64,000 nucleotides of DNA from Pseudovirgaria hyperparasitica (GCA_010093815.1 ML996590.1); one strand, 5' to 3'. Counted from the first letter of the stretch, positions 10,401 to 60,880 are shown. Notes: a model not told the origin generated them from the sequence alone. Numbers and translations are program-made.

Positions 10401-13400
10401 ATTACGGTATCTATCTCTTCTAGAAGTATAGTCTAGTTTTCTTATTTATATTATATGTTCGCCTATATAATAATAAATATATCTTAGCTTCTTATTAGGT
10501 ACTAGAGAATACTTAAGTCTATATACTAGTAGTATTAAGGCACGACTATCTCTATATAGTAGCTACCTTAAGAATACTCTAGGGTCGCTCTATCTTTCTC
10601 TATATAGTATACTATTATATATTAGTTCTATCCCCTTATAGATTAGTAGATATAGCTATAAGTAAGGTTAGAGTAGATAGTAGAGACCTTATAGTCTAGT
10701 ATATCTATCTTACTTCTCTCGCCTTTATAGCGTTAATATATTTAGTAACTTATTTATATTTTATATATATTACTAACTAGAATAGATATTTTCTATTATA
10801 GTTAGAGTACTTAGTAGTATCTCTATTCTATATACCGTCGCTCTAGATTCTATAGAGGTATTTCTAGATACTATAGCTCTAATAATACTAGCTATATATA
10901 GCCTTTTAAGAGTATCTCTACCCGGTATATCTATACCCTTAATAGTTAAAGTAAACTATTAATTCATTCTTAGAGGCTCACACCCTAACGGACTAAACTG
11001 GTTAATTTAGGGTAATACAGCGATCTACATACATTAAACAATAGAGTATACCAAGTATAACAACCTCCAATACACGTACGTACGTGTAGTATATAATACG
11101 CGACGACACCGACGTGTAGAGACGCTATATATATACGCTTGAAGGCTCTTCGATAACATGAGTATAGACTATCTCTAATAAACGCCGATACGCTAACCCC
11201 CTTTTTATTAGTTACGGGTAGCCCTTTACTAATAATTATAGCGGCCTTAGGCACCGACGTACCTCGGCTTCTACTAGGTATACCCCTAATACTAGTACGG
11301 TAGAAACGGCCATATAGTGGTATATCCTAGGACGATTAAACCCCTATCTAATAAACGACGAATAACTAAGGGCGTATAACGCCATAGATAATAGAGACGG
11401 AGGGGACCCCGCCCGGGGAGACCCTTCTAGATAAGATTAACTACTAGATAGTATGTATAGAGGGGGAAGTCGAGAAGGGAGAAACGGCCCTCCTTAGTAT
11501 CTTCCGGAACCTCGTCTAGAATATTAGAGAGCTTACTATAGAAGTAAAATAGGCGCCGGAACTAGACCTAGAATCCAGACTAGATCGTATAGAGGCCAGC
11601 CTATAGAGAATCTAGGAGGGCCTTACCTAGGGAAAACGCCCTAGTACGTAGGCATAGGTCGCCGCACCTATAAGCGGAATAGCTATATTAGCTAAAATAC
11701 TAAGGGCACCCACGGACGGGGTATATAGTATATAAGTTACTATCTAGGATAAAGAAGTACTCGTATAAGTCTAGCAAGCGTCCCTAAAGGATATTATAAA
11801 TAAGATTAATAAATAGAAAGGGATATAGTTAAATATAGTAGCCGCTAAACTTACCCTAGAAGGTATAGTACTAACTACTACTACTAATACGGCCTAGTAG
11901 ACTATCTCGCGTAACCTAAACACGATTAATAATATCTTCCCTAGCGCGTCCGTCCGCGTAACCACGTACCCAATATAGATATATACTATCTCTATCTAAG
12001 GACACGTTATCGGAGAAGACGATATTAAGTAAATAGAGTAATCTAATAAACCGAAGTACCCTAGGATTAAGATCGCGAAGGCGTGGTAGAAGAACGTCTA
12101 AGGGATTAAGATAAAATCGAAAAAGCACTCTACTATAATAGTAGAGCTTAGGGACCCCGCTCTCGTCTATAGAATAATATAGGAGGGCTTTCTAGCTAAA
12201 GGAGAGCTACTTACGGCGGAACCATAGGATAGGGTATAGGTAATAACGTAATGCTTTAACTATTAAGGATATAGGTATACTAGGTAGAGGTGCTCTTAGA
12301 AGACCGCCTATGGGTGGTATAAATAGGGCCATAATACTAAGGAATACCCTTATAAGACGCAGAGCGACGAGACGCGAGATAGGGACACCGCTAAGTACTC
12401 TAACTACGACGGGAAACACCTATCCTAGTCGGTAACGTGCACAAAACATAAGTAGATCGTAGAATATATTAACGCAATAAAGATAAGAGGGGCAAGGTAG
12501 ATATACCAAGCCATAAGGCCCTCGCTACCCTCACCGCCATCCCTAACTTTACTTATAAATCTAGTAACCACCCCCCGAAGGGGAGAGGATAACGCGTAAT
12601 AGTATACTATATAGAGAAAGATAGGCCGACCCCGGGGTATACTTAAAGCCGCTACCGCGCGAGGATAATCACGCCTTAGCGCTACTAACATATAGACTTA
12701 AACTTTCTCTAGCACCTAATAAGGGTATAAGATATACTTATTATTATATAGGCGAACGTATAATATAAACGAGAAAACTAAGCGACGCTTCTAGAAGAGA
12801 TAGAAGCCGTAATAATAGCCATCTAGAAACTATATAAATACTACTAAACTAATAAGCTAATAACACACCTAGGATACTATACTATCTACCCCACGGGCCT
12901 AGATAGGAGAGTTATATTTTATATATATAAGTCGATCCCGCTCTTAGAATGGTCTTATACCAAACATAATAACCTCCGGATGATACTATATCTCTAGATA
13001 AGTATAGGGCCTCTCCACATCTATAATATCTATAATTAATAGTAATCGCTCACGCTAGATGATATACTCGAGGGCACCACGATGCCGGGATAACATATCC
13101 TCCTAGGCGACTTTAATCTCTACTATAGATAGTAGGGAGGCCTAGCCGTCGCGAGAGAAGAACTTAGAGTAAGGGAACTATATATACGGTACCATGACTT
13201 CCTATACCTCCTTATACCTATAGGGTAGATTACCTAGAGGAAATATAAATAGAATGAGGACGGGTCTACGCTCGACCTCACCCTCGCCACCAAGTACATT
13301 AGCTATAGAGTATAGTACTACCGCCCGAGCCGGATATAGACGGACTCCGACCATGAATATATAGAAACTATAATAGACGTCTCTACTCTTAACGAATAAC

Positions 13401-16400
13401 GTAGGAAATAGCTATAGAAGGATACTAATTAGGATAAATACCTAGAGGACCTAGAATCGGCGATTCTAGACCCCTCTATAGTCGATATATCTAACGGCCT
13501 AGCCATAGATAAGGCCGTATAAGTCCTCCTTTAAGTATACTAAGCCATGAGAGATAAATACGTGCTATACCAAATATATAGACCCCTAGAAGCGAGGGGT
13601 ATACCTTAAATGCGAGAGTATAGAAGAGACGCCCGTAGACTATATACACGTATATACTATATCCGGACGACTAAGGCGTGGGAAGAGTAGAAGGAAGTAG
13701 TGCGATATCGTGATAGGGCCCTCCGTAATAAACGACGAAAATAATAGTATATAATTACCGATAAATACATACGGTAAGCCGTAGGGCTATAGCGTATAGT
13801 AAAGTAGGCTAAGGGTATAGACGCGCTAACACCGCCGCCACTAATACCTCCCCTAATATACTAAGAGAGAACATACTCTATAAGCCTAGAGAAGATAGAG
13901 ATCTTACGTAAAGTTATATTCCCCCTCCTAGAGCTAGTAGACCTATTAGATATTAATAATACTAAATACCTAGACGTAATTAATATCCCCTAAGAGGTTA
14001 CCGAGGAGGATATACTCGATACTATTAAAGTACTCCCGAATAATAAGGTACCTAGACCGGATAGAATACCGAATAGGTGCCTTAAACGCACTATACTAGC
14101 TACCCTACCGCTTATTAGTTATATATTTTAAGTATATATTAAGAACGGATACCACCCCCAAAGCTTCCGGACCGTCTATACCGTTATACTCCCGAAACTA
14201 GGGAAGAACCCTAGCTCCCTAAAAGGATAGAGGCTAATCGCCCTTCTCTTCTATCTTAGAAAGATACTAGAGGCTACGATCGCGAAGAAGATAAGCGCTA
14301 TAGTATAGGAATATAACCTCCTTCTAGTAAACTAGAAGGCGAAGGCTAGAAGCTCCCTAATTACCGCTATCTAATATATCCTTAAAGTCGTCTAGACCGT
14401 ATAGAAGTAGGGACGTATAGTAACGCTACTCTCCCTTAATATAGCCGGCGTATTTAATAAAGTAAACCACACGAGACTTATCTATAACTTACGGAAGAGG
14501 CGTATACCCGCGTAGATTACGCGGTTTATATAGTCCTTCCTCGCCGAAAGAGTTACCTAGATATATATCTCCGGATATCGAAGTAAGTACGAGAAGATAG
14601 CTTGCGGTATCCTATAAGGAAGTACTATCTCCCCGATCCTCTTCCTCTTCTTTACTATAGACCTTCTCTAGAGAATATAATATATAGAGGTAGTAGGATA
14701 CGTAGACGATATATACCTTCTAGCTATTAATAATAATACTAGCTAAATATATAGACGACTTAAATAAGACTACGGGAGATACGTCTAATAGGCAAAGCGC
14801 CATAGAGTAAAGTTCGCCCCTAAAAAGTACTAACTTATATACTTTATTAACCGCCGTAGGAAATAGGCTACTAGGGAAGGCGAGCGACGCCCTAGAATAG
14901 ACGCCTTCGACGAACCGCCGATATAAAGTATATATATACTCGGCGTCATGATCGATAATAAGCTTAAATAGGGACCATAGGTAGTATACGCCGTTTCTAG
15001 GGCCCTCTAGATAGAAGCCGCTATATACTAGATTACGGCCTCTACGTGGGGAACCGCCCGGGATAAGGCACGCTAGCTATATATATCTATAGTACGACCC
15101 GCCTTCACGTACGGACACGAGTACTAGTATACGGCCCTTATATAGACTAGGTAAATAAAGCTCGAATCTATATAGAACCGTATACTCCGTCTTATATTAG
15201 GCGTATATAAAGCTACTAACACGGTACTACTATAACGCGAGATAGACGTTATAAGTATATATAACTTCTACTAGATATAGAGGGTAGTATACTTTACTAA
15301 ATAATAAGCATAGGAACGTGTAGGAAATATAGAATATATCTTCGCCGCGCTACGCGCGCGAGTTAGCGTACACTACTAAGTACTCTTATATATAGGCCGG
15401 ACTCGACTACGGTATAAGTACCTAATAGAAATAGACTTAAACTAAGTAGTATAAGAGATTAAGGATAACCTAGATACCCTTCTAGACTAATAGAGCCTTC
15501 GAGAGCTCGGACGAAGTATATAGTTATAGATCTAAGATAAGTAGAAAGAGATACTCCGGGCCTAGTAGGCCTCCTAGTAGAATAGATATCTAGAGTAGAT
15601 CCGAGGACCATAGAAGGAGCTAAGTAAATAGATATATAAAGGGCTTATAAAGGCCTAGGCATCTATACTCCTCTAAGCCCGAACGGGCGCTATAGAACTT
15701 CTATACTACCTTTATAAGAGAGGCGTCCCTAACGTATCTCTATAGTATAAGGCGTACGGCCGGAGAGGTATAATACGCTACTATCTTATAATATGCCCTG
15801 ATCTTCACACGTAAAGGTAGAAGCTTATCTATATAATAAGAACCTCCGATATCGTATGATAGCTTAATAAGTACCCTAAGGACGTCGCCCGGTAGATAAT
15901 TATATACCTACTACTCCTCTAATTCTAGTAGACCTAGAAATATATACTAGAAGAAACCCGGTATATATTAGAGGAAACCCGGTATATGCCGGAAGAACCC
16001 CTTAACTAATAACCTCCGTACCTACACGTGCTACCTAAGGGTAAAATAACGGTAATATAGGCTGTAGGCTAATAGGTGTACCCTATGGCTATATACTTAA
16101 GAAGAAACAAAGGTTTAACGAGATGTAATTATCGACATAAGGAAGTTTTCCCCTCTTAGGTTTCTTCTTATATAGTAGCCTAGACTAGAGGAGGCATAGG
16201 CCTATAGAGTACTACTCTACCTAGTTATACAATATTATTATTATTATTATTAATAGTTAAAGTATTAGATTATTATCTATATCTAGTTCTATAGTTCTAC
16301 CGTAAGTAGTTCCTCTTTAGCTAAGAAGTCTTCTTATATAATTCTATAGATAAGAGTAGAGTCTCTAAGCTCTACTATTATAGTAGAGTATTTTTTTAAT

Positions 16401-17550
16401 TTTATCTTAATCCTCTATATATTTTTCTACTATACCTTTATAATCTTAATTCTAGAGTATTTCTAGCCGTTAGATCTCTCTATTTACTTAATATTATTAT
16501 TTCTAATAACTTAGCCCTAGATAGAGATAGTATATATCTATATTAGATATATATTTATATAGATAGATATACTATAGAAGATATTATTTATTATATTTAG
16601 GTTATAGAAGATAGTCTACTAGACTATATTAGTAGTAGTTATTAGTACTATACCCTCTAGAGTAAGTTTAGCTATAACTATATTTAACTATATTTATTTC
16701 TATTTATTAATTTTATTAATAATATCCTTTAGAGATATCTACTAGACTTATATAAGTACTTTCCTATTCTAGATAGTAACTTATACGCTATATACTTCTC
16801 CCTTAGATATCCTTAGTATTTAGACTATCTTAGTTATACTATCTATTAGTATAGTAATCTATATCTATATACTAGGGCGTTTATTCTAGGTAAGGTCTAC
16901 CTAGATCTTTAATAGACTAGTCTCTATCTAGTCTAGTCTAGACTCTAGATTTAACTCTAGTATCTATTTTACTTCTATAGTAAGTTCTTAGATATTCTAG
17001 ACTAGGCTCCGGAAGATATTAAGAAGGGTAGTCTCTCCCTTCTTAACCTCTCTTTCTATATATACTATCTAGTATTCTATCTTATCTATAAGGGTATTCT
17101 CTAGTAGAATTCCCTCTATCTTAGTTATCTATAGTAGTTTACGCCTTTAGTTATTCTTTATTTTCTAGATAGTAGTTTAGTTATTCTAGAATATACTACT
17201 ATATAGTCGTTTCTATTATACTAGTAGTAGAGATATCCCTAGTAGAAGCTAGGATATATTAGTATCTAAGGCCGCTATAATTATTAGTTAAGGGCTATCC
17301 TTAACTAATAAAGGGAGGTTAGAGTATTAGTATTTATTAGTAGTAGTCTATACTTACTACTCTAAAGAGTTTTTAAGTATATATATATAGTATCTCTATA
17401 TATTAGTACTATTATATATTATATACTATATATATATATATGTATTAGAAGCTATTATACTTAGTATACTCTATTAATTAATGTCTATAGATTACTATAT
17501 CGCCCTAATTTAACTAATTTTAGTCGCTTAGAGTATAAGAAGTTTTTTTT
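7495..17550 (-). mobile_element. Tad1-like LINE copy L0, heavily RIPed; interrupted by L1 and by gypsy A near its 3' end
   Basis: Collinear reverse-complement similarity to L1 ORF2 (7495-10400) and ORF1/5'UTR (10400-10953, 16251-17550). Its 5' terminus AAAACTTCT is shared with L2 and L3. Confidence 0.85.
10954..16250 (+). mobile_element. Tad1-like LINE copy L1, full length, RIP-inactivated
   Basis: ORF1 with CCHC knuckles (de-RIP QCFNCQGYGH...C..C...H....C, ~12245-12350). ORF2 has AP-endonuclease motifs LLGDFN, STLDLT and DSDH (13095-13355) and RT motifs LSL(D)IAG.F(D)KVNH ~14430, GI(PQ)GS.ISPILFLFF ~14605 and GYVDD ~14697-14710. (ATT)n tail ~16234-16250. TSD TTAATAGTTAAAGTA at 10939-10953 and 16250-16264. 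Confidence 0.93.
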
Positions 17551-18883
17551 ATAATAAGTATTATTAAGAGTATATTATAAATTATATAGAGGGATAATAG
17601 TATTAACCTATAATAGTTCTTAAGAGAGATAATAATTATTATTCTATATCTCTCTTAATTCTTTATAAGTCTATATAGTATAGATATATGCTTCTTAAAG
17701 GTCCTTAGACCTTCTTTCTAGTTACCTAGCTTAAAGAGTAAGTAAGTCTAATATTAATTATATCTTATTCTAAGGGAGTATCTAGAATAATTTAAATTCG
17801 ACCTCTATAGATATAATTAGCTTATAGCTAAGTATAAGATATATAGTACTATAACTAGTACTTATATAAGTTATAATTCTATCTATCTATATAACTACGT
17901 AGAGGTATTTAGGCTAGTTCTTAAACCTACTATTAGTTATCTTTATAAGGGTATTAGTAAGTAGTATAAAGCTTCTCTTAATAATTCTATTTATATAGGG
18001 GTTATATATAGATATAACCTTATAATAACTTCTATAGATTTAGAGAAGTTCCTCTATAGTATCTATATTCTCTTTTCTACTATTATAAGTAATCTTAGAA
18101 ATAATTCTATATCTATAAATAACGTTTTTAAAGAGAAACTTTAATTATATAATTACTTATTTATACTAGTCTAGATACTCTAGTAGGTTTTAGGGGATTT
18201 TCTAATAGATATTAGAGTTATTAATAGGGTATACTTTAACTCTCTTTCTTTTCTATATAGTAGCTATACTAAACCCCTATAATACCTCTAGTAAATATTA
18301 CTATTAGAGACTAGTAGAGCTAGCTATAAGCTACTCTATTATTATACTCTACTTATATATAAAGACTATATATCTAGCTACTATAACTAGGGTAGCTAAG
18401 TTATCTTTTCTTAATAACTAAATAATATTTTTAGACTAGATATCTTTAGAAAGTATTTCTATATAACTTATCTTTATATTTATATAAAAATATAGCTTAT
18501 CCCCTTTATTAGTAGTCTTACTATCTTCTATTTAATATAGATTATTAGTTAAGAATAGCTCTTAACTAATAATCTAACTTAACTCTAGCTCTTAGAGATC
18601 TACTCTACTATATAGTTAGTCTCTAGCTATAGAATTAGTTTTCTTTTCTAAGACTAATATATATTTATCTAGGCTAGTTTTAAAGATTATATACTTTTAT
18701 CTATAAATAGAATAAACTATTAGTAATACTTATCTAGAAGCTAATCTTTATACTATAAAAGAGACTTATCTAATATATAGCTCTCTAGAAATAAGATTAT
18801 AATTAAGTTTAGTATATATAAATATTAAAGTAGCTATAATAATCTATTTAATATAGATTAGATATTATTATACTATATCTATA

Positions 18884-21800
18884 ATAATAATAATAATAAT
18901 ATTAGTAAACTAGGTAGAGTACCACTCTATAGGCGCATGCCTCCTCTAGTCTAAGCTACTATATAAGAAGAAACCTACGAATAGGAAAAACTCCCTTATA
19001 TCCATAACTACGCTCTATCTATCCTCTCGTTCTTTATATATATATAGCCCTAGGGGCTACCCATAGGCCTATAGCCTATATTATAATAGTTTACCCTTAG
19101 GCAGCACGTATAGATACGGAGATTATTAGTTAAGGGCTACCCTTAACTAATAATCGCGGTTCTCCCGGGGTTCTTCTAACGTATACTAGGGTTCTTCTAG
19201 TATATATTAGGCTTCTTCCGGTATATATACGTGGGTCTACTAGAACTAGGGGAGAGGAAGGTATACGAGTATCCATCGGGCGACGTCCTTAGAGTACTTA
19301 TTAAGCTATCGCGTAATGTCGGAGGTCCTCGTTATACGGATAAGGGCTTATCTTAGAGTATAGAGGCTAGAGTATATCGCGAGGTAGTAGTATATTATAC
19401 CTCTCCGGCCGTAGTCCTCGTACTAGAGAGATACGTCTAGGACGCCTCTCTAGTAGAGGTAATATAGAAGATCTATAGCGCCTATTTAGGCTTAGAGGAG
19501 TATAGATACTTAGGCCTTCGTTAGCCCTTTATATATCTATTTACTTAGTTCCTTCTAAGGCCCTTAGATCTATTCTAGATACCTATCCTATTAGGAGGTC
19601 CACTAGGCTTTAAGTACCTCCCTCTATTTATTCTAGATCTATAACCATATAACGCAGCTAAGCTCCTTAGGGCTCTATTAGCTTAGAACGGCATCCGGGT
19701 TATTTCGAACCTCCTACGCGGTCTAGCTCGAGTCCGCCTCTATATAGTATTTATATTATACTTAAGTTTATTCTATAGTAGGGAGGGCCTAGTAATACGC
19801 GCGGATATATATACGTAGTATAGCGAAGGTATATACCCTATCTCCTCCACGTTCTTATACTTATTATTTAGTAAAGTATATAAGTCTCTATATCTAGTAG
19901 AAGTCCTATATACTTATTACGTTTATCTCGCGTTAGAGGAGCGTTATATTAGTAGCTTTATATATACCGGAGATAAGGCGGAGTATACGGTTTTATATAG
20001 ACTTAAGCTTTACCCGCTAAGCTTATATAAGGGCCGTATACTAGTACTCGTGTCCGTATATAAAGGCTAGGCGTACTAGGGAGACGTATAGCTATCTTAT
20101 CTTATCCCGGGCTATTCCCTACGTGGATACCGTAATCTAGCGTATAGTAGTTTCTATCTAGAGGGCTCTAGAGACGGCGTGTGCCACCTATGGTCCCTAT
20201 TTTAGCTTATTATTAATTATAACGCCGAGTGCGCGTATACTCTATACTAGTAGTTCTATAAAGGCGTCGATTTAGAGGCGACGTGCCCCCTCCCTAGTAG
20301 CCTATCCTCTATAGTAGTTAATAAAGTATATAAGCTAGTATTTTTTAGGTGCGAATTTTACTCTATAGTACTTTACCTACTAGACGTATTTCTTATGGTC
20401 TCGTTCGAGTCGTGTATATATTCTACTAGTACTACTATCGACCGCGAGGAGGTATATATCGTCCGCGTATCCGACTACCTCTATATATTTTATTCTCTAA
20501 AGAAGGTCTACTATAAAGAAGAGGAAGAGGATTAGAGAGATAGTACTCCCTTACGGGATGCCGTATACTATCTTCTTATATTCGCTTCGGTATCCGGGGA
20601 TATATATTTAAGTAGTCCTTTACGTAAGGAAGGACTATATAAATTATATAATCTACTTAGGTATTCGCCTTATCCGGAGGTTATGGATAAGTCTTATATA
20701 GTTTACCTTATTAAACGCCTCTACTATATCTAGAGAGAGTAGCGTAACGACTCGTCCTTATTTCTATATAGTCTAGATAACCTCAAGGATATATTAAATA
20801 GCTATAATTAGGGAGCTTTCTACCTTCGCCTTCTAGTTTACTAGGAGAAGGCCGTATACCTATACTACTATACTTATCTTCTTAGTAATTATAGCTTCTA
20901 GTACCTTACTAAGGTAGAAGAGGAGAGCGATCGGCCTCTATCCCTTTAGCGTATTTAGGCTCTTCCCTAGTTTTAGAAGTATAACCGTATATACGGTTCG
21001 GAAGCTCTATAGGTAGTATTCTATACGGGCGTACGCTCGGAATATATAGCCTATAATTAGTAAGGTCGCCTATATAGTCCTCTTAAGGCATCGATTTAGA
21101 ATTCCGTCTAGCCCGGGCGCTTTATTATTCGGGAGTATCTTAATAGCGCTAAGTATATCATCGTCCGTGATTTCCCTAGGGATACTTATAGCTTCCGGGT
21201 ATTCCGTGCCGTTAATATCTAATAGGTCTACGGGTTCTAGGAGAGGGAATATAACCTCTCATAGAATCTCTATTTTCTTAAGGCTTATAAAGTACGTCTT
21301 TTCTTAATATATAAGGGGAGATATAAGTGGTATAGGTGTCGGGGAGGCGGTGCTTTTAGCCCATTTTACTATATACCATAGTCTAGTAGTATTACGTATA
21401 TATCTATCCGTAACTATATACTACTATTTACGTCGCTTATAGCGGAGGACCTTATCTTATTATCTTCTTACCTCTCTCTATTTATCCCACGCTTTAGGTA
21501 TATAGTTATAGTATATATATATATATAATCTCCGGACTTCTTACCTATACTCTCGCACTTAAGGTATACTTTTCGGGTCTAGGGGTCTATATATTCGGTA
21601 TAGCACGTGTTTATCTCTTACTCCCTAGTACGCCTATAGGAGTATATTCACGGCCTAGTTAATGGCCGGGCCATTAGATATATTAACTATAGATAGGTCT
21701 AGGATCGTTAATTCTAGGTCCTTTAGGTACTTTTTCTAGTTAGTATCCTTCTATAGCTATCGCCCTCGTTAGTCTTAAGGGGTAGATATATCTATTACGG

Positions 21801-24336
21801 TCTCTATATATTCGTGGTCGGAGTCTATCTATATAAGGCTTAGGCGGTAGTATTAAGTCCTATTATAAATGTATCTAGTAGCTAGGGTAAGGTCGAGTGT
21901 AGATCCGCCCTTATCTTATTTATGTTTTCGCCAGGTAATCTATTCTATTAATATAAGAAGGTATAGAAAGCCATAGTATTAGGTGCGTAGTTCTCTAGCT
22001 CGAAGCTCTTCGTAGGTAACGGTTAGTCTACCCTACTAGCTATAATAGAGGTTAAAGTCTTCTAGGAGAATGTGTTATCCTAGCTTAGTAGTACCCTTAA
22101 GCATGTTATCTACCTAAAGCGATCGGTTCTAATTATATATATTATATATATAGAGGAGTCCGATATTCGTCTAGAGGTGTAGTATTATCTAGAGGTTATC
22201 CCGTTTAGTATATAACTATAATAAGAGTAGGATAGACTTATAGATATAGAAGAGGACTCTCCTCTCCGGTCCTAGGGGGTATATTATATAATATCCTAGG
22301 TGTGTTATTAGTTTATTCGTCTAGTAGTATTTATATAGCTTCTATATAGCGAGTATTATAGCTCTAGTCTCCTTAAGGAGTATCGCCTAGTTCTTACGTT
22401 TATACTATACGTTTACCTATATAATTAGGAGTATATCTTGGTCTCTTATTAGGTACTAGGGAATATATAGACCTATATATTTATTCCTCTAAGACGCGAC
22501 TATCCTTATACGGCGGCAGCCTTAGTAATTCCTTAGGGCTATTCTATTATTAGCTATAAGGAGGCGGGCTCCACGCACTAACCAACTACACTAAAAGAAC
22601 CGAATCTTGAAGCTACTACTTCAAGTGTGGAGTATACTACTTATATACGACTACTACACACATGTATAATCAACTGGCAGGCCACGTGCTTCTTACGTGC
22701 CTGACATTAGCTTTCTCGGGACGGTTTACTATTTCTAACCGCTTCCTCGTGAGGAGGTAGTCTATAGTAGTAGTATTATAGTAAAGAGAGGAATGGTAGT
22801 AGGTCGTATCGTTTATAGCTACCTTACTCCCTTCATCCGGATTAAGTAGATATATTTAGTAACCTATTTACGTTTTGCGTACGTAGCCGACTATAACGGG
22901 TACTTACCGTTATAGTTAGAGTACTTCGCCGTGTCCCTATCCCTCTAGCCCTCTCCTTATATCCCGTAGGGGCACTTCTAGGTACTATATTCTTATTAAT
23001 ACTATCTATACCTAGTCTTTTAGGAGTACCGCTATACCGTATACCTATATCCCTAATAGTTAAAGTACTATATTATTGCCTATACTCTATCCTATGGTTC
23101 CGCTATAAGAAGCTCCCCTTCCGCTAGGAATCCCTCTTATATAATTTAATACGCGAGGGTAGGGTCCTTAAGCTCTACTATTATAGTAGAGTATACCTTC
23201 GATCTAGTTTTAATCCCTTATATATTCTTCTACTATACTCTTACGATCTTAATCCCTAGGTATTTTCGCTCGTTTAACTATTCTATCCGTATAATATTCT
23301 CTTCTCTAATAATCTATCCGCTTATAGATATAGAGTATATCTATATCGGGTATATGGCCGCCCTAATAGAGGCGCCTAGGAAGATACTACTAATCGCGTT
23401 CGGATCACGCGAGATAGTCTACTACACGATATTTATTATCGTAGTAAGTACTACTCCTCCTAGCGTGAGTTTAGTAGCGACGACGTTTAACTATATTCTC
23501 TTTTATTTATTAATCTTACTTACTATATCCTTTAGGGATACTTACTAGACCTATACTAGGGTGTCCTTATCCTAGATTGCGACGTATATACTACACGCCA
23601 CGTCGCCGGTCCGGGGGGCCCGTAGTATAGCCTCTAGTATTACTACTATTTATATCTATATACTAGGGCGCTTACCTTAAGTAAGTTCCTCCTAGATTCT
23701 ATATAGGCTAGCCTCTATTTAGTTAAGCCTACCCTCCGGTCCTTCTAGTTATATCTTCTTCTCCTTCTCCGTAATTCCCTTTAGATTCTAGATAAGGTCC
23801 TAGAATATATATAGAAGGGTCTTCTAGCCCTCTCCGGCTTCCTTCTCTATACGTACTACCTAGTAGTTAATATAATCTAGAAGGGTTTCCCCTCTTAGGG
23901 TCCCCTTTATTCTATCTATCTATAGTAGCGTGCGCCTTTAGGTATATTCTACGTTTTAGATAGATATATAGTTACCCTTAGTAATATTGCTATATGGCCT
24001 TTTCTATTATACTAGTAGGGGTATATCTAGTATATACCGGGGTATATCGGTGCCTAAGGCCGCTATATTTATTAGTTAAGGGCTACCCTTAACTAATAAA
24101 AGGGGGTCGGCGTATCGGCGTTCTAGTAGTATAGTCCGTGCCTCTATCTCCGTAAGGATTTTAAGAGGGTATATATATATCTTTACACGGTGATAACGTC
24201 TTGGTTTCGACGCTACACGTACGTGCGTGTAGTAGTAGTTAGTATACTCGGTGTACTCTATCGATTAAGGTGTATATCTTACTATATTACCCCGAATGGA
24301 CCAAGTTAGCCTCTTAGGGATGTAAAAGAAGTTTTT
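18884..24336 (-). mobile_element. Tad1-like LINE copy L2, full length, RIP-inactivated
   Basis: (AAT)n tail at ~18884-18900, same ORF1/ORF2 layout as L1, TSD TTATACTATATCTATA at 18868-18883 and 24337-24352. Confidence 0.92.
22555..22706 (-). mobile_element. Solo LTR of the TRIM family
   Basis: 152-bp match to the TRIM LTR ending CCTGACA, with TSD TTAGC on both sides; inserted in L2 ORF1 3' region. Confidence 0.92.
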
Positions 24337-37211: not shown

Positions 37212-38790
37212 GATTAGGCGCCTAAAAACCTGCCTAATTATTAGTTAAGGGCTACCCTTAACTAATAATCCGGGCTAAGGTTTACCCGCACCGAGAGGTT
37301 TACTAGAGGTGCACTTTATTTATATTAAGGTCTTTCTTTTAGGCGTTCTTTACACGGTTTCTTACACGGTTACTATACTACTAAGGGTAGTAGTTCTATA
37401 GGCCGGGGAGGTATATGTGGAAGGCCGCTCCTATAGCCCTACATGTATATGTCCCTAGCTCGATTACATGGCTTCATTATATATTTAAGGAGGGCGTTTT
37501 CCTTGGTCATTCTACTCGGGACGCTCCCCCCCATTACTAATATTCGACTATTTAACCTTTCCTTACGTTCATAGGCCTCTATAGGTATTAATTATTAGGC
37601 TTAGCTATTAAAGAATTGATTAAGAGTATTATATAGACCCGTCCTATTATAAAAGAGAACTAATAAGAAGTCGTACGTTCAAAGAGAACTTATAATACCT
37701 AGGAGAGATACTTGTGAGTTCGTCGCGACTACTATACTAGGAACACAGCCATTTATAAAAGGGACACACGTAGCGATAGCTCACCACACTATTACTAGCT
37801 ATATTAAAGTACTTATAGAATTCTATATATCTATTCTTCTTACCTCTAGATAATATAATTTCTTCTTCTAAGTTACTATCTACTAAAGCTTTATAATAGT
37901 CTATTACTATTTTAGTACTAATACTATATACTAGTATTCTCTATAATATATTAATATTTACTCTAGATATAGAGATCTTTACTCTCTCTCTATACTAACT
38001 AGAGCTATTCTAGACTATTATTATATAGTTCTAAATTACTTATAGAGTAGCTTAAGGGCCGGCTAAGAAAGGTAGTAATAGAATTTTCTTATTATTTATT
38101 CTAAAGCGCTCTCTAAATATCTATACTCTATTAATATTTAGTAGTCTATTCTTAATATATTCTACTATCTCTAGGTATCTATATATAGAGTAATCTTCTC
38201 TATATATAATATAAATAATTAGTCTCTAAAGTCTATTTAAAGCTATAGCTAGTTTCTAGGCGCCTAGAGTAGAGATATACTCTCTCTTCTAGATATAGCT
38301 TTATAGATAGATCTATACTAATTCTATAGATATAACTTATACTTAAGAATATACTAAAATATTAAGTCTCTATATCTATTAGTTAATAATAGCTAAAAGT
38401 AATTTAGACTTATACTTTCTAAAAGATAGAAATATAGAATTAGAAGTAAAATAAGACTTTATCTTAATTAATATAAGGTCTAATTTACTAAACCTTTCTA
38501 CTATCTTATTAAACTTATCTAATTCTAGTATAATATAGATCTTAACTATAGAGAAGTTACTAAATTTATTTATCTACTATTCTTTATATAACTATGCTTC
38601 TAAATTAGTCTTCTTTCTTTCTATTTTTAACTTTTAGTATATAGCTATAGCTAGCTCTTATATAGTAGAGTACTTATTAATTTAGACTAGTTTCTTAATT
38701 ACCCTAGCTTTTTATAATATAAAACTATAGTTAGTTATCTAGTTATAGCTATATATATCTATTAGGCTAGGTAGTATAGTAGTAGTATAC

Positions 38791-40598: not shown

Positions 40599-41449
40599 CC
40601 TATACCTATAGAACGTATATATAGCTATATATATAGTTCTTCCTAGTTAAACACTAATATTATTATTATTATTATTATTATATATATCTATTATAAGCTA
40701 ATATTTCTCTATAGTTTATACTTTAAGACTATTAGATAGACCTTTAAGAAAGAGTTCTATTTATAAATATAGACTTAGACTTCCTTTAGTAGTAAGTTTC
40801 TCTATAATAATATATAGAGAGAGAGTATAATAGATCTATCTTAACTATCTCTATATATTTTTATATAAAGTAGATAGTACCCTCTTTAAGTATTAAGTTA
40901 AATAGAGAGAATTCCTTAAGTAACTCTTTATATAATATAGTATATTATTATTTTTAAAAACTAGATATTTCTTTAATAGTAGGTTAGAGATAGTTCTTAT
41001 AGTATAATAGTAGAGATATTATTTTATTATTAGATAGAACCTTATAGTTAGTATATATATCTTTATACTTCTAAAGGAAAGTTATAATATTTATTTCTTT
41101 AAAATATTCTAGAGCTAGAGTAGATAAAGGAACTATCCTTCTCTATTATATAAATACTATAAAGAAATTAAGTATCTCTCTATAAGTTACTAGGTCTTTA
41201 TCTTAAGTTCTAATTATACTATTACTAATAGTAGATATACTAATAGAGATACTAGGGGTAAGATTATTAGTTAAGGGATTACTTTCTAATATATCTATCT
41301 ATAATATCTATGAAAAGGGCAGGTATAAATAGATATATAATATTCCTTATATAAGGAATATATATCTAANNNNNNNNNNNNNNNNNNNNNNNNNNNNNNN
41401 NNNNNNNNNNNNNNNNNNNNNNNNNNNNNNNNNNNNNNNNNNNNNNNNN

Positions 41450-42206: not shown

Positions 42207-42434
42207 TATTAGAACTTAGTCTTAGATATAACTAGATCTATATATATCTTAGCTAACTTAGTTAGAAGGTAGTATAATAGATAGTAAACGGTTATATACT
42301 AAATAGATTAGTATCTCTTTATATATATACTCTTAGATTTCTACTAAAAGGGTTTAGTAGGAATTTATTCTATAATAGAATATACTCTATTACTTTATCT
42401 AACTATACTACTATCTAATTACTCTATTCTTATA
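42207..42434 (+). mobile_element. Solo LTR of family C
   Basis: 228-bp match to the C LTRs, TSD TCTCT. Confidence 0.88.
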
Positions 42435-43865: not shown

Positions 43866-44658
43866 ACTATAGAACTTTTATACTATCTCTATAAGGGAGA
43901 CATCTCTAATATTTCTCTATAGTATAAGATATATAGCTAGAGAGATATAATATACTACTATCTTATTATATACTCTAACCTTTATATATAATAGTAATAG
44001 CTTATATATAATAAGAACTTCTAATATTATATAGTAGCTTAATAAGTACTCTAAGAATATCTTCTAGTAGATACTTATATATCTACTACTTCTCTAGTAC
44101 TAGTAGATCTAGAAATATATACTAGAAGAACCTTAGAAGAATTCTAATTATTAGTTAAGAATAGTCCTTAGCTAATAATCTCTATATTTATATATACTAT
44201 TTAAGAGTAAAATAATAGTAATATAGACTATAGATCTATAGATAGCTAGATAGTATAGTAGTAGTATACTATATTACTAGAAGTATTTATTATCTAATGT
44301 TATAGATTTAAATTCTATAATAGCTATCTTTTTATATACTAGTTTTTATATACTCTACTAAAGGTATATAGAGTTAAGTAAATATATAATATAAAGATTA
44401 CTATTATATAATTACTTAGTTCTAAGTAATAGTTATATAATATAGAGATATCTATAAAATAAAATTATCTAATTTAGCTATCTATCTATACTACCTTAAG
44501 TAATAGAGCTAAGCCTAGAGTAGCTAGACTAAAAAATTCTACTTAGCTTAAATTGTAGAATTTATATATACTAAATAGAGTCTTATCTACTCTAATCTAG
44601 CTTAGCTTATACTTACTCTAGCTTAGTAAATAATAAAATAGATAGTAATATCTAATAA

Positions 44659-50600: not shown

Positions 50601-53600
50601 TTAGTATAGAACTATAATAATAATAATAATAATATTATATAACTAGGTAGAGTAGTACTCTATAGGCCTATGCCTTCTCTAGTCTAAGCTACTATATAAG
50701 AAGAAACCCTATAGAGAAAAACTTCCTTATATCTATAACTATATCTTATTAAACCTCTATTTCGTCTTAAGTATATAGCTATAGAGTACGCCTATTAGCC
50801 TATAGTCTATATTACCGTTATTTCGCCCTTAGGTAGCACGTATAGGTATAGAGGTTATTAGTTAAGGGCTGCCCTTAACTAATAATCGGGGTTCTCCCGG
50901 GGTTCTTCTAGTATATATCGGGTTACTACTAGCGTATACCGGGTCTCTTCCGGTATATATTTCTAGGTCTACTAGTACTAGAGGAGTAATAGATATATAA
51001 GTATCTATCGGGAGACATCCTTAGGGTACTTATTAAGCTATTATATAATATCTAAAGTCTTCGTAACGTAGATAAGCTATTACCGTTATATATAGAGGTT
51101 AGGGTATATAGCTAGATAGTAGCGTATTATACCTCTCCGGCCGTACGCCTTATACTATAGAGAGATATTAGGAACGCCTCTCTTATAGATATAGTATAGG
51201 AGTTCTATAGCGCCCGTTCGGGCTTAGATAAGTATAGATACTTAGGCTTTCGTTAGCCCTTTATATATCTATTTACTTAGTTCCTTCTATAGCCCTTAAA
51301 TCTACTCTAGATACCTATTCTATTAGAAGATCTAGTAGGTATAGAGTGCCTCTTTCTACTTATCTTAAGTCTATAACCGTATATTTTTCACGAGTTCTTA
51401 AAGACTCTACTAGTCTAGAAGAGCGTCCGGGTTATCTCGGACTTCTTATACTACTTAGCTAGAGTCGGCTTCTATTAAGTACCTATACTATATTTAATTC
51501 CGGCCTATATATAGGAGTACGCGGTAATATATACTAATTTATATATATAGCGCGGCGAAAGTATATTCTACGTTTCCTATACATTTCTATACTTATTATT
51601 TAGTAAAGTATATTACCCTCTATATCTAGTAGAAGTTATATATACTTATAACGTCTATCTCGCGTCATAGTAGTACTATATTAGTAGCTTTATATACGCC
51701 TAATATAAGACGAAGTATATAGTTCTATATGGATTTAAGCTTTATTCGCCTAGTCTATATAAGGGCTATATACTAGTACTCGTGTCCGTACATGAAGGCG
51801 GGTCATACTATAGATATATATAGCTAGCGTGCCTTATCCCGGGCGGTTCTCTACGTAGAGACTATAATCCGTTATATAGTAGCTTCTATCTAGAGGGCCC
51901 TAGAGACGGTATATACTACTTATAGTCCCTATTTAAGCTTACTATCTAGTATAACTCCGAGCGCGTGTATACTTTATACTAGTAGTTCGTTAAATATATC
52001 GATTTAGAGGCGTTATTCGCCTTCTCTAGTTATCTATTTCCCTTAATAGTTAATAAAGTATATAAGCTAGTATTTCTCCGGGGCGAACTTTACTCTATAG
52101 CGTTTTATCTACTAGAGGCACCTCTTATAGTCCTATTCTAGTCGTCTATACGTTCGGTTAGTATTATTATTAATAGCTAGAAGGTATATATTATCGGCGT
52201 ATCCGACTACCTCTATATACTTTATTTCTTAAAGAAGGTCTACTATAAAGAAGAGGAATAGGATTAGAGAGATAGTACTCCCTTATAGGATGCCGTATAC
52301 TATCTCTTTATATTCGCTCTAGTACCTAGGGATATATATCTAAGTTATTCTTTCTATAAGGAATGACTATATAAAGCGTATAATCTATTCTAGTATTCGT
52401 CTTATCCGGAGGTTATGAATAAGTCTTATATAGTTTACCTTATTAAACGCTCCGGCTATATTAAGGGAGAGGAGTAATACTATCCGTCTCTATTTCCATA
52501 CGGCCTAGACAACTTTAATAATATATTAAATAGCTATTATTAGGGAGCTATCTATCTTTACCTTCTGGTTCGAAGGGAGAAGATTATATTCCTATACCGC
52601 GGTACTTATCTTCTTCGCTACCGTAGCCTCTAGTATCTTACCTAGGTAGAAGAGAAGGGCGATTAGTCTCTATCCCTTTAGGGAGTTAGGGCTCTTTCCT
52701 AGTTTTAGGAGTATAATAGTATAGGCGACTTAGAAGCTCTAGGGGTGGTACCCCTACGTGACGCATGCTTAGAATATATAAGTAATAAGCGGTAGGGTCG
52801 CTTTTATAGTACTTTTTAGGTATTAATTTAGAATTCCATCTAGTCTAGGTGCTTTATTATTTAGAAGTATCTTAATAATATTAAGTATATCCTCCTCCGT
52901 AAATTCTTTAGGGATATCTACCGTATATAGATATTCGGCGCCGTAAATATCTAATAGATCTACTAGTTCTAGGAGAGGGAATATAGCCTCCCGTAGGGCC
53001 TTAGTTTTCTTAAGGCTCGTGGAGTATATTCTCCCCTAATATATTAGGGGAGGTATAAGTGGCGGGGGTGTCGGAGTATCTACGCCCTTAGCCTATTTCG
53101 CTATATACCATAGCCCTATTACGTATCGTGTCTATTAACTAGTAATTATACGCTACTATTTACGCCTTTTATTATAGAGGACTTTATTACATTATTATAT
53201 CGCTTCCTTCTATTCTTTCTATGACTCGGGTGTTCTCGTACGGTATACGCGTGTGTATAGCCTTCGGGCGTCTTATCTACTTTTCTATACTTAAGGAATC
53301 TCCTTTACTTCCGGGGGCCGGTATATTTAGTATAGTACGTGTTTATTTCTTATATTCTAGTATATTTATAGGAGTGTCTATACGGCCTAGTCTATAGCTA
53401 GATTATTAGATATATTAACTATAGAGAGATCTAGGATCGCCGATTCTAGGTCCTTTAGGTACTTTTCCTAGTCGGTGTCCTTCTATATCTATTATCCCCG
53501 TTATTTATTCGGGGTATACACGTTTATTATAGTTTCTATATATTTATAGTCGGAATCCGTCTATACCTAGCTTAGGTAGTAGTATTAGATCCGGTAACTA

Positions 53601-56600
53601 ATATACTCTATAGCGAAGGTAAGGTTAAGCGTAGACCCGTCTTCGTCCTATTTATGTTTTTTCTATATAACTTATTCTATAGATATAAGTAGGTATAGGA
53701 AGTCGTGGTAGCGGGTACGTAGTTCCCTTACTCTAAGTTCTTCCCTTACTATAGCTAGGCCTCCCTACTATTAGTAGTAGAGGTTAAAGTCTCCTAGAAG
53801 AATATATTACCCTAGTTCCGTAGTACCCTCGAGCATCTCGTCTAGTATAAGTATACGTTATTAGTTATATATATTATATATATATAGAGGGCCTATATCT
53901 ATTTATAGGTATAGTATTATCCTAAGGTTATCGCGCTCGGTATACGACTATAATAAGAGTAGTATTAACCTATAAATATAGAAGAGGACTCGTCTTTCTA
54001 GTTCTAGAGGGTATATAGTATAGTATCCGGGGTGTATAGTTAGTTTACTCGTCTAGTAGTATTTATAGAGTTCCTAGATAGCAAGTATTATAGCCCCAGT
54101 CTCTTCGAGAAGCGTCGCCTAGTTCTCTCTTTTATATTATATATTTATCTATATAATTCGGAGTATATTCTAGTCCCTTATTAGGTACTAGAGAGTATAT
54201 ATACCTATATACTTATTCCTTAGAGGCGCGACTATCCTTACACGGTAGCGGCTTTAACTATACCTTTTAGTTATCCTATTATCTTTAGAATAGTCTACTA
54301 TTCTACCTAACTACCTTCCGGAGGGAAGGTTAGAGGTATTATAAAGGAAGGGCCTATAGTAGGTATTATATTCTATAACTATCTCACGCCTCTCGCTTTT
54401 ATCGTACGAATATATTCTATAACCTATTTACGTTTTATATATGTTAACGACTATAATAGGTATTTCCCGTCGTAGTTTAAATACTATACTATATCTCTAT
54501 TTCTTAGTCCGTCTTCTCGCGGTTTATAAGGGCACTCCTAGGTAGCGTGGTCTCTATAGTACTATCCGTACTTAGTCTTCTATAAGTACCTTTATATAGT
54601 ATATCTATACCCTTAATAGTTAAAGCACTATATTATTATCTATACCCTATTCTATGGCTCGGCTATAAGGAGCTCTCCTTCTACTAGGAATCCCTCCTAT
54701 ATAATATATTATACGAGGGCGGGGTCTTAGAGCTCTATAATTATAGTAGAGTATTTTTTCGCCGTTATCTTAATCGCCTATAGGTTCTTCTACCACGCTT
54801 TTACGATCTTAATCCCTAGGTATTTTCGCGTGTTAGATTATTCTATACGTATAATATCCTCCGCTCCAATAGCCTATCCCTACATAGGTACTATATATAC
54901 TATAATCGGGTATATAGCTACTCTAATAGACGCGCTAGGGAAGATACTATCTATCGCGTTCGGATCTTATAAGATGTTTTACTACGTAGTATTTATTATA
55001 GTAGTAAGTACTACCCTACCTAGCATAACTTTAGTAGCCACGACGCTTAACTATATTCCTTTCTATTTATTAATCTTATTTATAATTTCCTTTAGAGATA
55101 CCTATTAGACCTACGCCAGCGTGTTCTTATCCTAGATTATAATATATATACTATATACTCTATCTATGGTCCTAGTAGTCCTTAGTACGGTAGCTCCGGG
55201 TATTACTATAATCTAAGTCTATATATTAGGGCGCTTATCTTAGAATAGCTCTTCCTAGATTCTCCGTAGACTAGCTTCTATTTAGTCGAGTCTACTACTA
55301 GGTTTCTCTTATAGCGACTTTCTTTCTTCCTCCGTGATTCCTCTTAGATTCTAGATAAGGTCCCGGAATATATAAAGGAGGGTCTTCTTTCCCTCCTTAG
55401 CGTCCCTCTCTATATATATTATCTAGTATTTAATTTTATCTAGGAGGGTCTCCCCTCTTAGGGTCCCCTTAGTCTAGATTATCTATAGCGCTTCGCACCC
55501 TTAGTTAGTTCCTATATTTTAGATAGGTATCTAGCTATCTATATTAATATCGCTATATAGCCGTTTCTACCGTACTAGTAGGGGTATATCTAGCGTCTAC
55601 CGGGGTATTATAATGCCTAAGGCCGCTATGGTTATTAGTTAAGGGTAGCCCTTAACTAATAAAAGAGGGTCGGCGTGTTAGTATTTATTAGATATAGTCT
55701 ATACTCGTATTATTAAAGAGTCTTTAAGTATATATATATAGTGTCTCTATACGTCGGTATCATCGCGTATTATATGCTATATATACGCACGTATATCGGA
55801 GGTTATTATACTCGGTATACTCTATCGTTTAATATATGTAAATCGCTATTTTACCCCGAATTAACTAGTTTAGTCCGTTAGGGTGTAAGAAGTTTTATAT
55901 AGAACTATATATCTTTAGTATAGAAACCTCTAGATTAGAGTTATCTTTACTAACTTTATAGCTCTTTAGTATATATAAGAATAGAATCTTAGTCTTTTCT
56001 TTAGATTTTTTCTTAGGAATTTTAATATTACTAGTATATAGAAAGAAGTCTAAAGTAGTAGAGATCTTAGTACTATTATAGAGATTAATATATATTAGTA
56101 AGAATCTATAATAACTTAAGAAAAATAATATTATCTAGTAATTACGGTAATTATAGCTAAAGTAGCTTTAGCTAGATTAGTATAAATCTCTATAGAATTA
56201 TACTCCTAGCTATAAAATATACTATATTTATATAATTTATAGAAAGATATTTCTAAAGAATTCTAATTATTAGTACTATACTTCTTATTAGTAGTATTTA
56301 GATATTATCTAATATTAATCTATATAAATATAAGTAAATCTATATAAAGCTTCTTAAACTTATTTAAATACCTATAAATAATAGTACTTCTTAGTTATAT
56401 AAGTACTATAAGTTATAGAATTAGTACTACTATATATATATACTAATAGAAAGTAATAACTATAATAATATATAATTAGATTATTAGAGCCCGGCCTAGG
56501 TTAGAGTAGATTAATAGCTTTTATTATATTATTAATATAGATAAGATAAGAATTATTTAAAGGTATCTATTTACTAATTACTTCTAAGTATTAAGATTTT

Positions 56601-58341: not shown

Positions 58342-58372
<31 letters not shown>

Positions 58373-60783: not shown

Positions 60784-60786
<3 letters not shown>

Positions 60787-60880
<94 letters not shown>

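Follow-up and report, generated by a model that had tools for sequence, protein, structure and literature searches.

A 31-base perfect palindrome at five fixed places in two unrelated, long-dead retrotransposon families of Pseudovirgaria hyperparasitica

Several classes of short inverted-repeat sequence have been described in and around mobile elements. MITEs and foldback elements consist of inverted repeats only, lack coding capacity and, where described, MITEs measure roughly 50-800 nt. Shorter palindromes are known from bacteria, as the REP/REPIN sequences moved by RAYT transposases, and from fungal mitochondria, as mobile GC clusters and PstI palindromes; they have spread without leaving classical target duplications, and some of them lie in frame inside genes. 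The REP/RAYT type has a cognate HUH gene (RAYT/TnpA) and a conserved tetranucleotide next to the hairpin. Retroviral dimer and packaging signals are located in the leader, and the dimer and cyclisation signals of retroviruses and Ty1 (the HIV-1 DIS loop, MoMLV PAL and Ty1 CYC5/CYC3) are family-specific, 6-16 nt long and not known to be shared with LINEs. The recombinase sites of the loxP/FRT and hix/res type are centred on an asymmetric spacer of 6-8 nt or on a 2-nt crossover. Finally, ‘stringent’ LINEs carry a 3'UTR stem-loop that is recognised by the reverse transcriptase, and LINE internal promoters are located in the 5'UTR.

Here we describe a 31-base perfect palindrome that occurs at five fixed places in two unrelated, long-dead retrotransposon families within a 64,000-nt stretch of the P. 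hyperparasitica genome (GCA_010093815.1, ML996590.1; henceforth referred to as ‘the window’). Each of the systems above matches it in part. Like MITEs and foldback elements it has inverted repeats only, no coding capacity, several unrelated contexts and possible carriage after nesting in a master element, but it is 25-39 nt long, and no target-site duplication, empty site, parent element or outside copy was seen. REP/REPIN and mitochondrial palindromes share its size range (~20-40 nt) and palindromic hairpin shape, but are prokaryotic or organellar, whereas this palindrome belongs to nuclear ascomycete retrotransposons. The dimer and cyclisation signals are likewise self-complementary and lie in the RNA leader and towards its 3' end; four of the five sites are placed accordingly, and both the LINE and the gypsy element have, by position, a self-complementary leader sequence with a 3' partner. 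The recombinase sites have a similar length (~30-34 nt) and 12-15-nt inverted arms; in contrast, the palindrome is centred on one base, as the copy at 50855 shows, and its sites in the window show neither inversion nor deletion between them. The ‘stringent’ LINE stem-loops likewise place a hairpin in the 3'UTR, but this palindrome lies 222 nt upstream of the tail and occurs also in the 5'UTR and in an LTR element. In those parts of the literature that we could consult, we found nothing on the motif itself and no precedent for unrelated retrotransposon classes that share an identical, symmetrical 31-nt module at homologous ‘end-proximal’ places; a literature search also returned nothing on the transposons of P. 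hyperparasitica.

Allowing up to 3 mismatches, the pattern TTAGTTAAGGG-NNN-CCCTTAACTAA matched ten times in the window (at 11208, 17284, 18545, 19126, 24072, 27226, 29941, 37241, 50858 and 55635; no mismatch in six of these), whereas 100 dinucleotide-preserving shuffles averaged 0.01 matches, with a maximum of 1. Beyond these ten, the window holds one further copy, which is decayed, and two half sites: a RIP-tolerant pattern gave 14 matches against 0.13 expected and gained the decayed copy at 44151, while its 3-mismatch matches at 2175, 16317 and 56553 were left out of the copy count. In eight copies the perfect arms are 13-18 nt long and the entire unit consists of both arms plus 1-3 nt, and the hairpins of three canonical copies have folding energies of -11.7 to -17.7 kcal/mol (z -6.1 to -8.8). 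A first-pass annotation of this DNA had given arms of 16 nt at 19121-19155 and 18 nt at 29934-29972, both of which were borne out. It had also described a centre of CTA, CTG or TAG; these sequences are present, but the reading of them as a 3-nt spacer does not stand, as the true form of the palindrome is two 15-nt arms around one central A/T, within GGGC-W-GCCC, that RIP has altered. RIP has produced the CTA centre from CTG and the TAG centre from CAG. An inversion of the centre was considered and rejected, since CAG and CTG differ only in the one central base.

The first host family is a Tad1-like LINE (RVT_1 at E 1.2e-12; Exo_endo_phos_2 at 23.9 bits, under the 27.4 cut-off) with an (ATT)n tail at its 3' terminus. 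LINE copy A (plus strand, 10977-16275) has a palindrome in its 5'UTR (11205..11235), with two transversions in the arms, and only the right arm of one in its 3'UTR (15999..16012). The half site previously noted near 16000 is real only as a right arm and is better described as a deletion, copies C, D and F having 33 alignment columns (the left arm and left flank) that copy A lacks; CCC stands at each edge of the gap. Copy E (minus strand, 16250-17534), the 5' part of an older LINE split by copy A, has a 5'UTR palindrome with one transition (17281..17311). Copy C (minus strand, 18851-24319) has palindromes with 16-nt arms in the 3'UTR (19121..19155) and 15-nt arms in the 5'UTR (24068..24100), and fragment F (plus strand, 43867-44233) retains a RIP-decayed 3'UTR palindrome (44148..44178). 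In copy D (minus strand, 50595-55889), the 3'UTR palindrome (50855..50885) has 15-nt arms around 1 nt and is the sole copy with an un-RIPed centre (CTG on the plus strand); the central base of its 5'UTR palindrome (55632..55662) is the complement of that in LINE copies A, E and C.

The second host family is a Ty3/gypsy element (RT_RNaseH at E 5.5e-11; pol homologue at E 3.7e-166). Gypsy B (plus strand, 26349-37795), whose two LTRs (26349-26717 and 37416-37784) are 94% alike, contains three palindromes. That of the leader and gag start (27223..27253) is a variant with 10-nt arms around a TAATC centre, in which the left outer arm deviates and a 24-nt core lies between exact 7-nt direct repeats, TAACCTT. 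The copy in the linker between PR and RT (29934..29972) has 18-nt arms and amounts to 13 codons in the pol frame, and the third is in the 3' non-coding region (37237..37269). Two minus-strand gypsy fragments, termed B', carry further copies. The fragment at 18166-18844, which corresponds to gypsy B 29666-30344, has the PR-RT linker copy (18538..18576; 17-nt arms, centre decayed by RIP), and the fragment at 40672-41285, which corresponds to gypsy B 27232-27862, has a decayed form of the gag-start variant (41264..41289) with one recognisable arm and the same TAAT centre. A break at the palindrome (41267) in the latter was considered and rejected, as the decayed left arm is present and is followed by an assembly gap at 41370.

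All copies in the window thus lie in the LINE 5'UTR or 3'UTR, or in the gypsy leader/gag start, PR-RT linker or 3' non-coding part. The proposal that the palindrome sits near both ends of each unit holds: in the LINE, the 5'UTR palindrome is 228 or 227 nt away from the 5' end and the 3'UTR palindrome 222 nt short of the 3' tail, and the outer gypsy copies are 496 nt downstream of the 5' LTR and 147 nt upstream of the 3' LTR. Two other accounts of the LINE arrangement were rejected. The LINE leader and trailer do not behave as long terminal repeats (z -0.1 to 2.8, compared with 77.8 for the positive control), and a site-specific LINE inserted in a palindromic target does not fit, the LINE having its own (ATT)n tail 222 nt past the palindrome and the flanks diverging beyond.

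The palindrome is the sole block of more than 17 nt that is common to the LINE and gypsy families, and its flanks are, as annotated, unrelated between the two classes (1 of 45 site-side pairs at p<=0.05 in an anchored extension test). Since identical sequence stands at five positions whose flanks differ, it was copied rather than independently evolved, and its sharing by two unrelated classes without any likeness of the flanks speaks against a longer fragment having been exchanged, which the annotation had raised as an alternative; the palindrome is not part of one. The anchored comparison of the window sites revealed no shared flank motif beside the hairpins, and a larger unit, its arms extended to 39 nt, was not significant in the same test. 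Among the copies in the window that cover a given site, the palindrome was found in 4/4 LINE 5'UTRs, 4/4 LINE 3'UTRs (one half-deleted), 2/2 gypsy PR-RT linkers and 2/2 gypsy gag starts, and its presence in every covering member of the families indicates that it was acquired before amplification. We conclude that the palindrome was copied into both families before they amplified; the route of entry and any function are left to the rival readings considered below.

The annotation had also named a lack of conservation above the flanks as counting against its interpretation, and no such excess was seen once RIP-type transitions were set aside: transversions are as frequent in the motif (3/31 columns) as in the flanks (30/200 columns). 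The motif has no CpA or TpG remaining, and its identity between copies is due to this saturation by RIP. RIPed sequences that lack CpA and TpG look ‘conserved’, and the conservation of RIPed copies is best judged on transversions only. Because the copies are dead and RIP-saturated, selection cannot show in them, and because they are dead the lack of excess conservation says nothing on function in active ancestors.

The copy in the PR-RT linker is read in the pol frame as RIIS*GLPLTNNP (29934-29972), as annotated, and the suggested origin of its TAA from CAA fits, in that the pol frame crosses the palindrome and reading TpA back to CpA would open only one of the three frames, that of pol. At 39 nt this copy is a multiple of three; 25 nt with a TA added would give 27. 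A search for relatives of pol gave 6 matches with a word search and 6598 with an exhaustive HMMER search at E<=0.001; the best 22 HMMER matches all start ~100 residues past the palindrome, with dissimilar N-termini, and the linker appears not to be conserved among relatives. An empty site in the linker was not found, relatives' proteins neither covering nor conserving it.

The five unrelated contexts are shown by the data, as are the occurrence in each family member seen, the reading frame, the saturation by RIP and the restriction to these two families. The reading that we tentatively favour, at rather less than even confidence, is that of a minimal foldback-type insertion into master copies followed by hitch-hiking. 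A 31-nt self-complementary cassette, with ~15-nt arms around one A/T when read back from RIP and with arms that may reach 35-39 nt in three of the five places, would have been copied into the masters at the LINE 5'UTR, LINE 3'UTR, gypsy leader, PR-RT linker and gypsy 3' non-coding region. The likeliest entry would be that of an inverted-repeat-only, non-autonomous DNA element inserting where extra sequence is tolerated, and the cassette would then have multiplied passively with both families and been frozen by RIP; that an insertion took place, how long the inserted piece was and how it read before RIP are what we infer. Consistent with insertion are the identical sequence at five positions with unrelated flanks, the occupancy of each site in all window members that cover it, the location of the sites in UTRs, leader or an unconserved inter-domain linker, which are insertion-tolerant places, and the 39-nt ORF copy in what would be the only frame open after TpA is read back to CpA.

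Against insertion, no consistent direct repeat was found at any common boundary across the five sites. The exact 7-nt direct repeat around the gag-start variant speaks for insertion but is marginal, with a ~1-in-20 chance over all offsets and sites, and a 2-nt TA on each side is indistinguishable from the palindrome itself or from RIP products; because TpA steps may be RIP products, a TA, TTA or TTAA target is no more than a possible reading. The near-symmetry of the LINE sites (228 and 222 nt from the ends) is not predicted by random insertion, and no empty site was found, with relatives' proteins lacking coverage of the linker. The genome-wide contexts cut both ways. In contigs of the same organism the palindrome core has ~20-45 times the summed depth of one flank (core words ~940-973 thousand versus 32-52 thousand for a single context in one contig set, and 466-470 thousand versus 8-15 thousand in another), so that the core far exceeds every individual context in depth, as insertion would predict. 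However, all 14 listed loose-end groups (of 18) were LINE 5', LINE 3', gypsy 3' or gypsy PR-RT contexts, and neither a solo context nor a single-arm parent element was among them. The ~30 kb of window DNA that belongs to neither family holds no copy, even by the RIP-tolerant pattern, and nowhere in the window does another element end in a single arm. The tiny mobile hairpin proposed by the annotation is possible, but no target duplication, empty site or copy outside the two families was seen. At 25-39 nt it would, to our knowledge, undercut every described MITE in size; if mobile, it would be the smallest nuclear element known to us, a parasite of parasites. A Helitron 3' hairpin, which would stand ~10 nt ahead of a CTRR terminus in an element with a 5' TC terminus and common upstream sequence, does not fit, both flanks being contiguous host retrotransposon and unrelated between sites.

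A close rival to foldback insertion, and one that we regard as possible, is that of a functional cassette, self-complementary or protein-binding, near both ends of each RNA; if so, the LINE and the LTR element of this fungus would have a common requirement, either RNA end-pairing or a common host factor. Its better form, in itself unlikely, is a cis-element of the RNA that would act by 5'-3' pairing (cyclisation) or RNA-RNA pairing (dimerisation), helped by the gypsy Gag/NC and LINE ORF1p chaperones and aiding strand transfer, packaging or full-length copying, and one common sequence would even let LINE and gypsy RNAs pair mutually. The LINE copies near both RNA ends, the gypsy copies in the leader and just before the 3' LTR and the strong hairpin (-11.7 to -17.7 kcal/mol) point this way, and the two-family restriction without target duplication is expected if the element was gained by recombination and then kept. 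Yet any palindrome would pair, and identical 31 nt in two families would still require a transfer step; a perfect palindrome folds locally first, the third gypsy copy, in the PR-RT linker, has no obvious role, and there is no non-RIP conservation excess, though the copies are dead.

Rather more doubtful is a neutral transfer, in which a 31-nt patch would have been copied a few times between co-expressed retroelement templates and then amplified, without function or mobility of its own, palindromes stalling polymerases or reverse transcriptases and so leading to template switching or break repair. The lack of target duplication, solo copies and extra conservation is what such transfer predicts, and the carriers are only retroelements, whose replication includes template switching; but five clean gains with junctions exactly at the palindrome edges would need two precise switches each, and chimeric LINE-gypsy junctions at palindromes were not seen in the window.

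We consider it improbable that the palindrome is a new nuclear module of REP size, that is, a hairpin that moves without target duplication or a common self-complementary ‘handle’ by which LINE and gypsy RNAs would cyclise, dimerise and even pair mutually; were the handle to exist, one retroelement class could ride in the other's particles or use the other's machinery.

The protein-binding form of the functional cassette is more improbable still. Here both families would have picked up a double-stranded DNA site for a dimeric protein, which could be of host origin or resemble a transposase or recombinase, for example for LINE internal-promoter transcription or chromatin targeting. The perfect two-fold symmetry and the long half sites, identical everywhere, suit sequence-specific recognition better than pairing, and one copy lies in the LINE 5'UTR, the location of internal promoters. 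On the other hand, 15-nt half sites far exceed ordinary transcription-factor sites, no host promoter context was among the listed loose ends of the same-organism contigs and no palindrome occurs in the genic 5.4 kb of the window, and the literature, as far as it was accessible, offered no precedent. A recombinase site, which the annotation had suggested, is disfavoured in its classical core form, the centre of 1 nt (3 nt after RIP) being unlike the 6-8-nt spacer or 2-nt crossover of tyrosine- or serine-recombinase core sites.

Very improbable is the reading in which the peptide-coding gypsy PR-RT copy is ancestral coding sequence and the source of the other sites: in P0018, a distant relative with 33% RT identity, ILISQGSPVKSNLPY precedes the AYKRK motif by ~66 residues and resembles RIIS*GLPLTNNPY, located here ~100 residues before TIYKRK, but the alignment has only E = 29, the loose motif occurs in 1/156 TE-related proteins and ISQGLPLTD with up to 3 substitutions in 0/156, and the linker is otherwise unconserved.

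Searches elsewhere gave results at chance level and unrelated to the palindrome, with no meaningful match outside the fungus. The whole window had no Rfam 15 match at gathering score. With a pattern that admits RIPed and un-RIPed forms, public collections yielded no locus in viral contigs, one in prokaryote genomes and five in metagenomes; the metagenome loci (three of them distinct) all have TTA or TAA centres, one lying within a bacterial recG ORF and one adjoining ligase and DDAH-like genes.

A search of the window allowing at most 3 mismatches returned 10 matches to the 31-nt palindrome against 0.01 expected, with no shuffle out of 100 reaching 10, which bears out the recurrence reported in the first-pass annotation. 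A pattern tolerant of repeat-induced point mutation (RIP) gave 14 matches against 0.13 expected and added a decayed copy at 44151; three 3-mismatch matches of this pattern were left out of the copy count. The arm lengths first described also held, with perfect arms of 18 nt at 29934-29972 and 16 nt at 19121-19155, and the half site reported near 16000 is a right arm without its left, at 15999. The copy at 50855-50885 has perfect 15-nt arms about a single central base, and a decayed one at 41264-41289 retains one recognisable arm. Folded as single-stranded DNA, canonical copies reached -11.7 to -17.7 kcal/mol (z -6.1 to -8.8) and the variant at the gypsy gag start -7.5 kcal/mol (z -4.2). Read along the LINE, the 5' site has the centres TAG, TAG, TAG and CTA, the 3' site has TAG, CAG and TAG, and the gypsy-sense centre is CTA. 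Since CAG to TAG and CTG to CTA are the usual RIP changes, and CAG and CTG differ solely in the middle base, the palindrome has a single A/T between 15-nt arms, and the variation in centre was rejected as evidence of inversion. A right-arm match with one mismatch, GCCTTAACTAA at 3677-3687, in the AT-rich, unclassified left part of the window, is probably due to chance. A second recurrent palindrome, TAGAAGTTTCTAGAG(G/A)GTTCTAGAAACTTCTA, with 14-nt arms and a 4-nt centre, occurs at 41595-41626 and 58492-58523 and is carried by another repeat family (41469-41757 matches 58366-58655 at 86%).

The LINE and gypsy families were defined by self-comparison of the window and by Pfam, which identified in the LINE RVT_1 (E 1.2e-12) and Exo_endo_phos_2 (23.9 bits, under the 27.4 cut-off). 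The LINE is present as copies A (10977-16275, plus strand), C (18851-24319, minus) and D (50595-55889, minus), as fragment F (43867-44233) and as an older element split by copy A into pieces B (7495-10951) and E (16250-17534). Copy A lies in the opposite orientation to this older element, whose two pieces complement each other and have ~13 nt of LINE coordinates (12254-12266) in common, as would fit a target-site duplication from the insertion of the younger copy A. The copies begin at the same 5' end, and the LINE's (ATT)n tail is genuine. All four copies covering the relevant part of the 5'UTR carry the palindrome, which starts 228 nt from the 5' end in copy A and 227 nt from it in copy D, and so do all four covering the 3'UTR, where in copy A it is incomplete and ends 222 nt before the tail. 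There, 33 alignment columns are missing with CCC at both edges, a secondary deletion. Beyond the palindrome, LINE leader and trailer are unrelated (z -0.1 to 2.8, against 77.8 for the control). Site-specific insertion of the LINE into the palindrome was rejected, since the LINE's own tail is on the far side of the palindrome. Immediately upstream of the 3' palindrome, at 15941-16001 and likewise in copies C and D, stand about three tandem 21-nt units (TATATACTAGAAGAAACCCGG).

The gypsy element that carries the palindrome (gypsy B, 26349-37795; LTRs 94% alike) contains RT_RNaseH (Pfam, E 5.5e-11), and its pol matches the protein P0001 over 30243-33389 (E 3.7e-166); a single frame spans the entire gag-pol. 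A sister copy, B', is present in the window as fragments. The palindrome is found in both gypsy copies in the linker between protease and reverse transcriptase (PR-RT), and in both at the gag start as a variant with the centre TAATC. It occurs once in the 3' non-coding part, 147 nt ahead of the 3' LTR; the palindrome nearest the 5' LTR lies 496 nt downstream of it. We confirmed that the PR-RT copy reads in the pol frame as R I I S * G L P L T N N P, 64 codons downstream of the protease match to another protein, P0029. The proposal that its TAA was probably CAA also fits, in that restoring CpA for TpA in the left arm and TpG for TpA in the right would give I S Q G L P L T D. After this un-RIPing the other two frames would hold TGA, which would place the PR-RT copy in the only open frame; its 39 nt, or 13 codons, would fit a cassette translated in the active element. 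The gag-start variant shares the pol frame, a weak point because the density of stops suggests that the ORF starts close by. Downstream of the integrase part, where the reported extra ORF starts, are two short tandem arrays (33659-33727 and 33962-34063; periods 26 and 34, ~2.7-2.9 copies).

Conservation of the palindrome above its flanks, on which the first-pass annotation had made its proposal depend, was absent outside RIP transitions, and dead copies cannot reveal past selection. In the four-copy LINE 5'UTR alignment, the 31 columns of the palindrome comprised 25 identical columns, 3 transitions, 3 transversions and no gaps, against 93, 72, 30 and 5, respectively, in the 200 columns of the flanks (±100). 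RIP-type transitions alone are depleted in the palindrome; the share of transversions is similar (~10% against 15%). Read directly, the canonical 31-mer contains neither CpA nor TpG, so RIP cannot alter its preferred sites further; the identity among copies is a RIP effect.

The other adverse outcome named at first pass, a longer fragment exchanged between the families, did not materialise: exact matches above 17 nt between LINE and gypsy B consist of the palindrome alone (27-35 nt). Anchored, RIP-tolerant extension from the core edges gave 1 of 45 site-side pairs at p<=0.05, so the arm extension at 29934 (CGGA...TCCG) has no significant support as part of a larger unit and could be a pre-existing small palindrome. 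The five sites share no boundary at which a direct repeat occurs. An exact 7-nt repeat, TAACCTT, encloses a 24-nt core in just one of them, the gag-start variant, and is marginal over all offsets and sites; TA, TTA or TTAA as a target must be read knowing that TpA steps could themselves be RIP products. Protein searches for a relative lacking the palindrome gave 6 hits in a word search (best 39-40% identity) and 6598 in an exhaustive HMMER search (E<=0.001). The closest all begin at a T.YKRK motif ~100 residues downstream of the palindrome, and their N-termini are mutually unrelated. None of 156 TE-related proteins contained ISQGLPLTD with up to 3 substitutions; in one distant relative, P0018, ILISQGSPVKSNLPY occupies a position that is roughly collinear, a lead only at an alignment E of 29.

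When contigs from four runs (X1 to X4) were compared with a 60-nt stretch around 29934-29972, 311, 79, 0 and 2, respectively, matched. Summed word depth, which is not copy number, was 940-973 thousand (X1) and 466-470 thousand (X2) for the core, and 32-52 thousand and 8-15 thousand for the gypsy-specific outer flank. Among 14 of 18 loose-end groups the contexts were the LINE 5'UTR, the LINE 3'UTR, the gypsy 3' site and the queried gypsy context, with no new context or single-arm continuation, although short matches may be filtered out. X4, a second sample under the same organism label, gave the LINE 3' context. In public collections, a pattern allowing un-RIPed forms matched 5 metagenome loci (3 distinct, all with a different centre, one within a bacterial recG ORF) and, across prokaryote genomes totalling 596 billion bases, 1 locus; viral contigs and Rfam gave no match. 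The literature listings and abstract openings mention neither the motif nor transposons of P. hyperparasitica.

Its presence in all family members requires that the palindrome was acquired in the master lineages, its presence across copies that all five acquisitions predate each family's amplification, and its 31-nt identity at five unrelated places that it was copied. Our tentative reading, possible rather than probable, is that a minimal foldback-type element would have inserted at tolerant places and then hitch-hiked with both families. Insertion is favoured by where the sites lie, by a length that is a multiple of three and by the open pol frame; it is disfavoured by the lack of a target duplication, solo copy or parent element and by the symmetry of placement within the LINE. 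A functional cassette, whether for RNA pairing or for protein binding, is favoured by the end-proximal placement in both LINE and gypsy and by the restriction to retroelements, but it would still need a transfer to yield identical sequence, no role is obvious for the third gypsy copy, and selection is not visible; we consider it doubtful as a whole, with RNA end-pairing or dimerisation unlikely and a putative protein-binding site improbable. Neutral patch transfer via template switching seems quite unlikely, and an ancestral coding origin in the gypsy element highly improbable. A recombinase site is the weakest of the three readings first offered, because the centre is a single base. The palindrome is real, unexplained and apparently undescribed, and in the one genome seen here it survives only as relics frozen by RIP; a claim to a new mobile element or mechanism is not yet supportable, and the motif merits genome-wide and cross-species follow-up.

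The window consists of nested dead transposons, AT-rich at GC 15-40%, beside genes at GC 45-52%, and the transposons bear the signature of RIP, with reading frames riddled with stops yet kept in frame. It has just two long ORFs, of 537 aa and of 250 aa, the latter running off the window's end. The former (58647-60260, minus strand) is by protein match an MFS transporter, 100% identical to a P. hyperparasitica entry; as the next best match is 66% identical, there is no close relative to compare. About 20 kb of very AT-rich DNA (1-7400 and 38000-50600; GC 15-31%), in which protein queries recognised no LINE or gypsy B and self-similarity is low-level only, presumably represents older, more heavily RIPed repeats. 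Two 1097-nt stretches (24334-25430 and 25516-26612) either side of a 10-N gap (25431-25440) look like an assembly overlap that was left unmerged rather than a true tandem duplication, since they are 99.9% identical against 70-76% among other copies in RIPed DNA. Further N runs occupy 41370-41449 (80 bases), 45916-46410 (495 bases) and 60881-60890 (10 bases); six apparent ORFs of 175-199 aa at 45818-46463 were rejected as artefacts of the 495-N run. The last gap breaks a (TTA)n microsatellite of ~69 units in the gene-rich part (60777-60985), a repeat of the same kind as the (ATT)n tail of the LINE.
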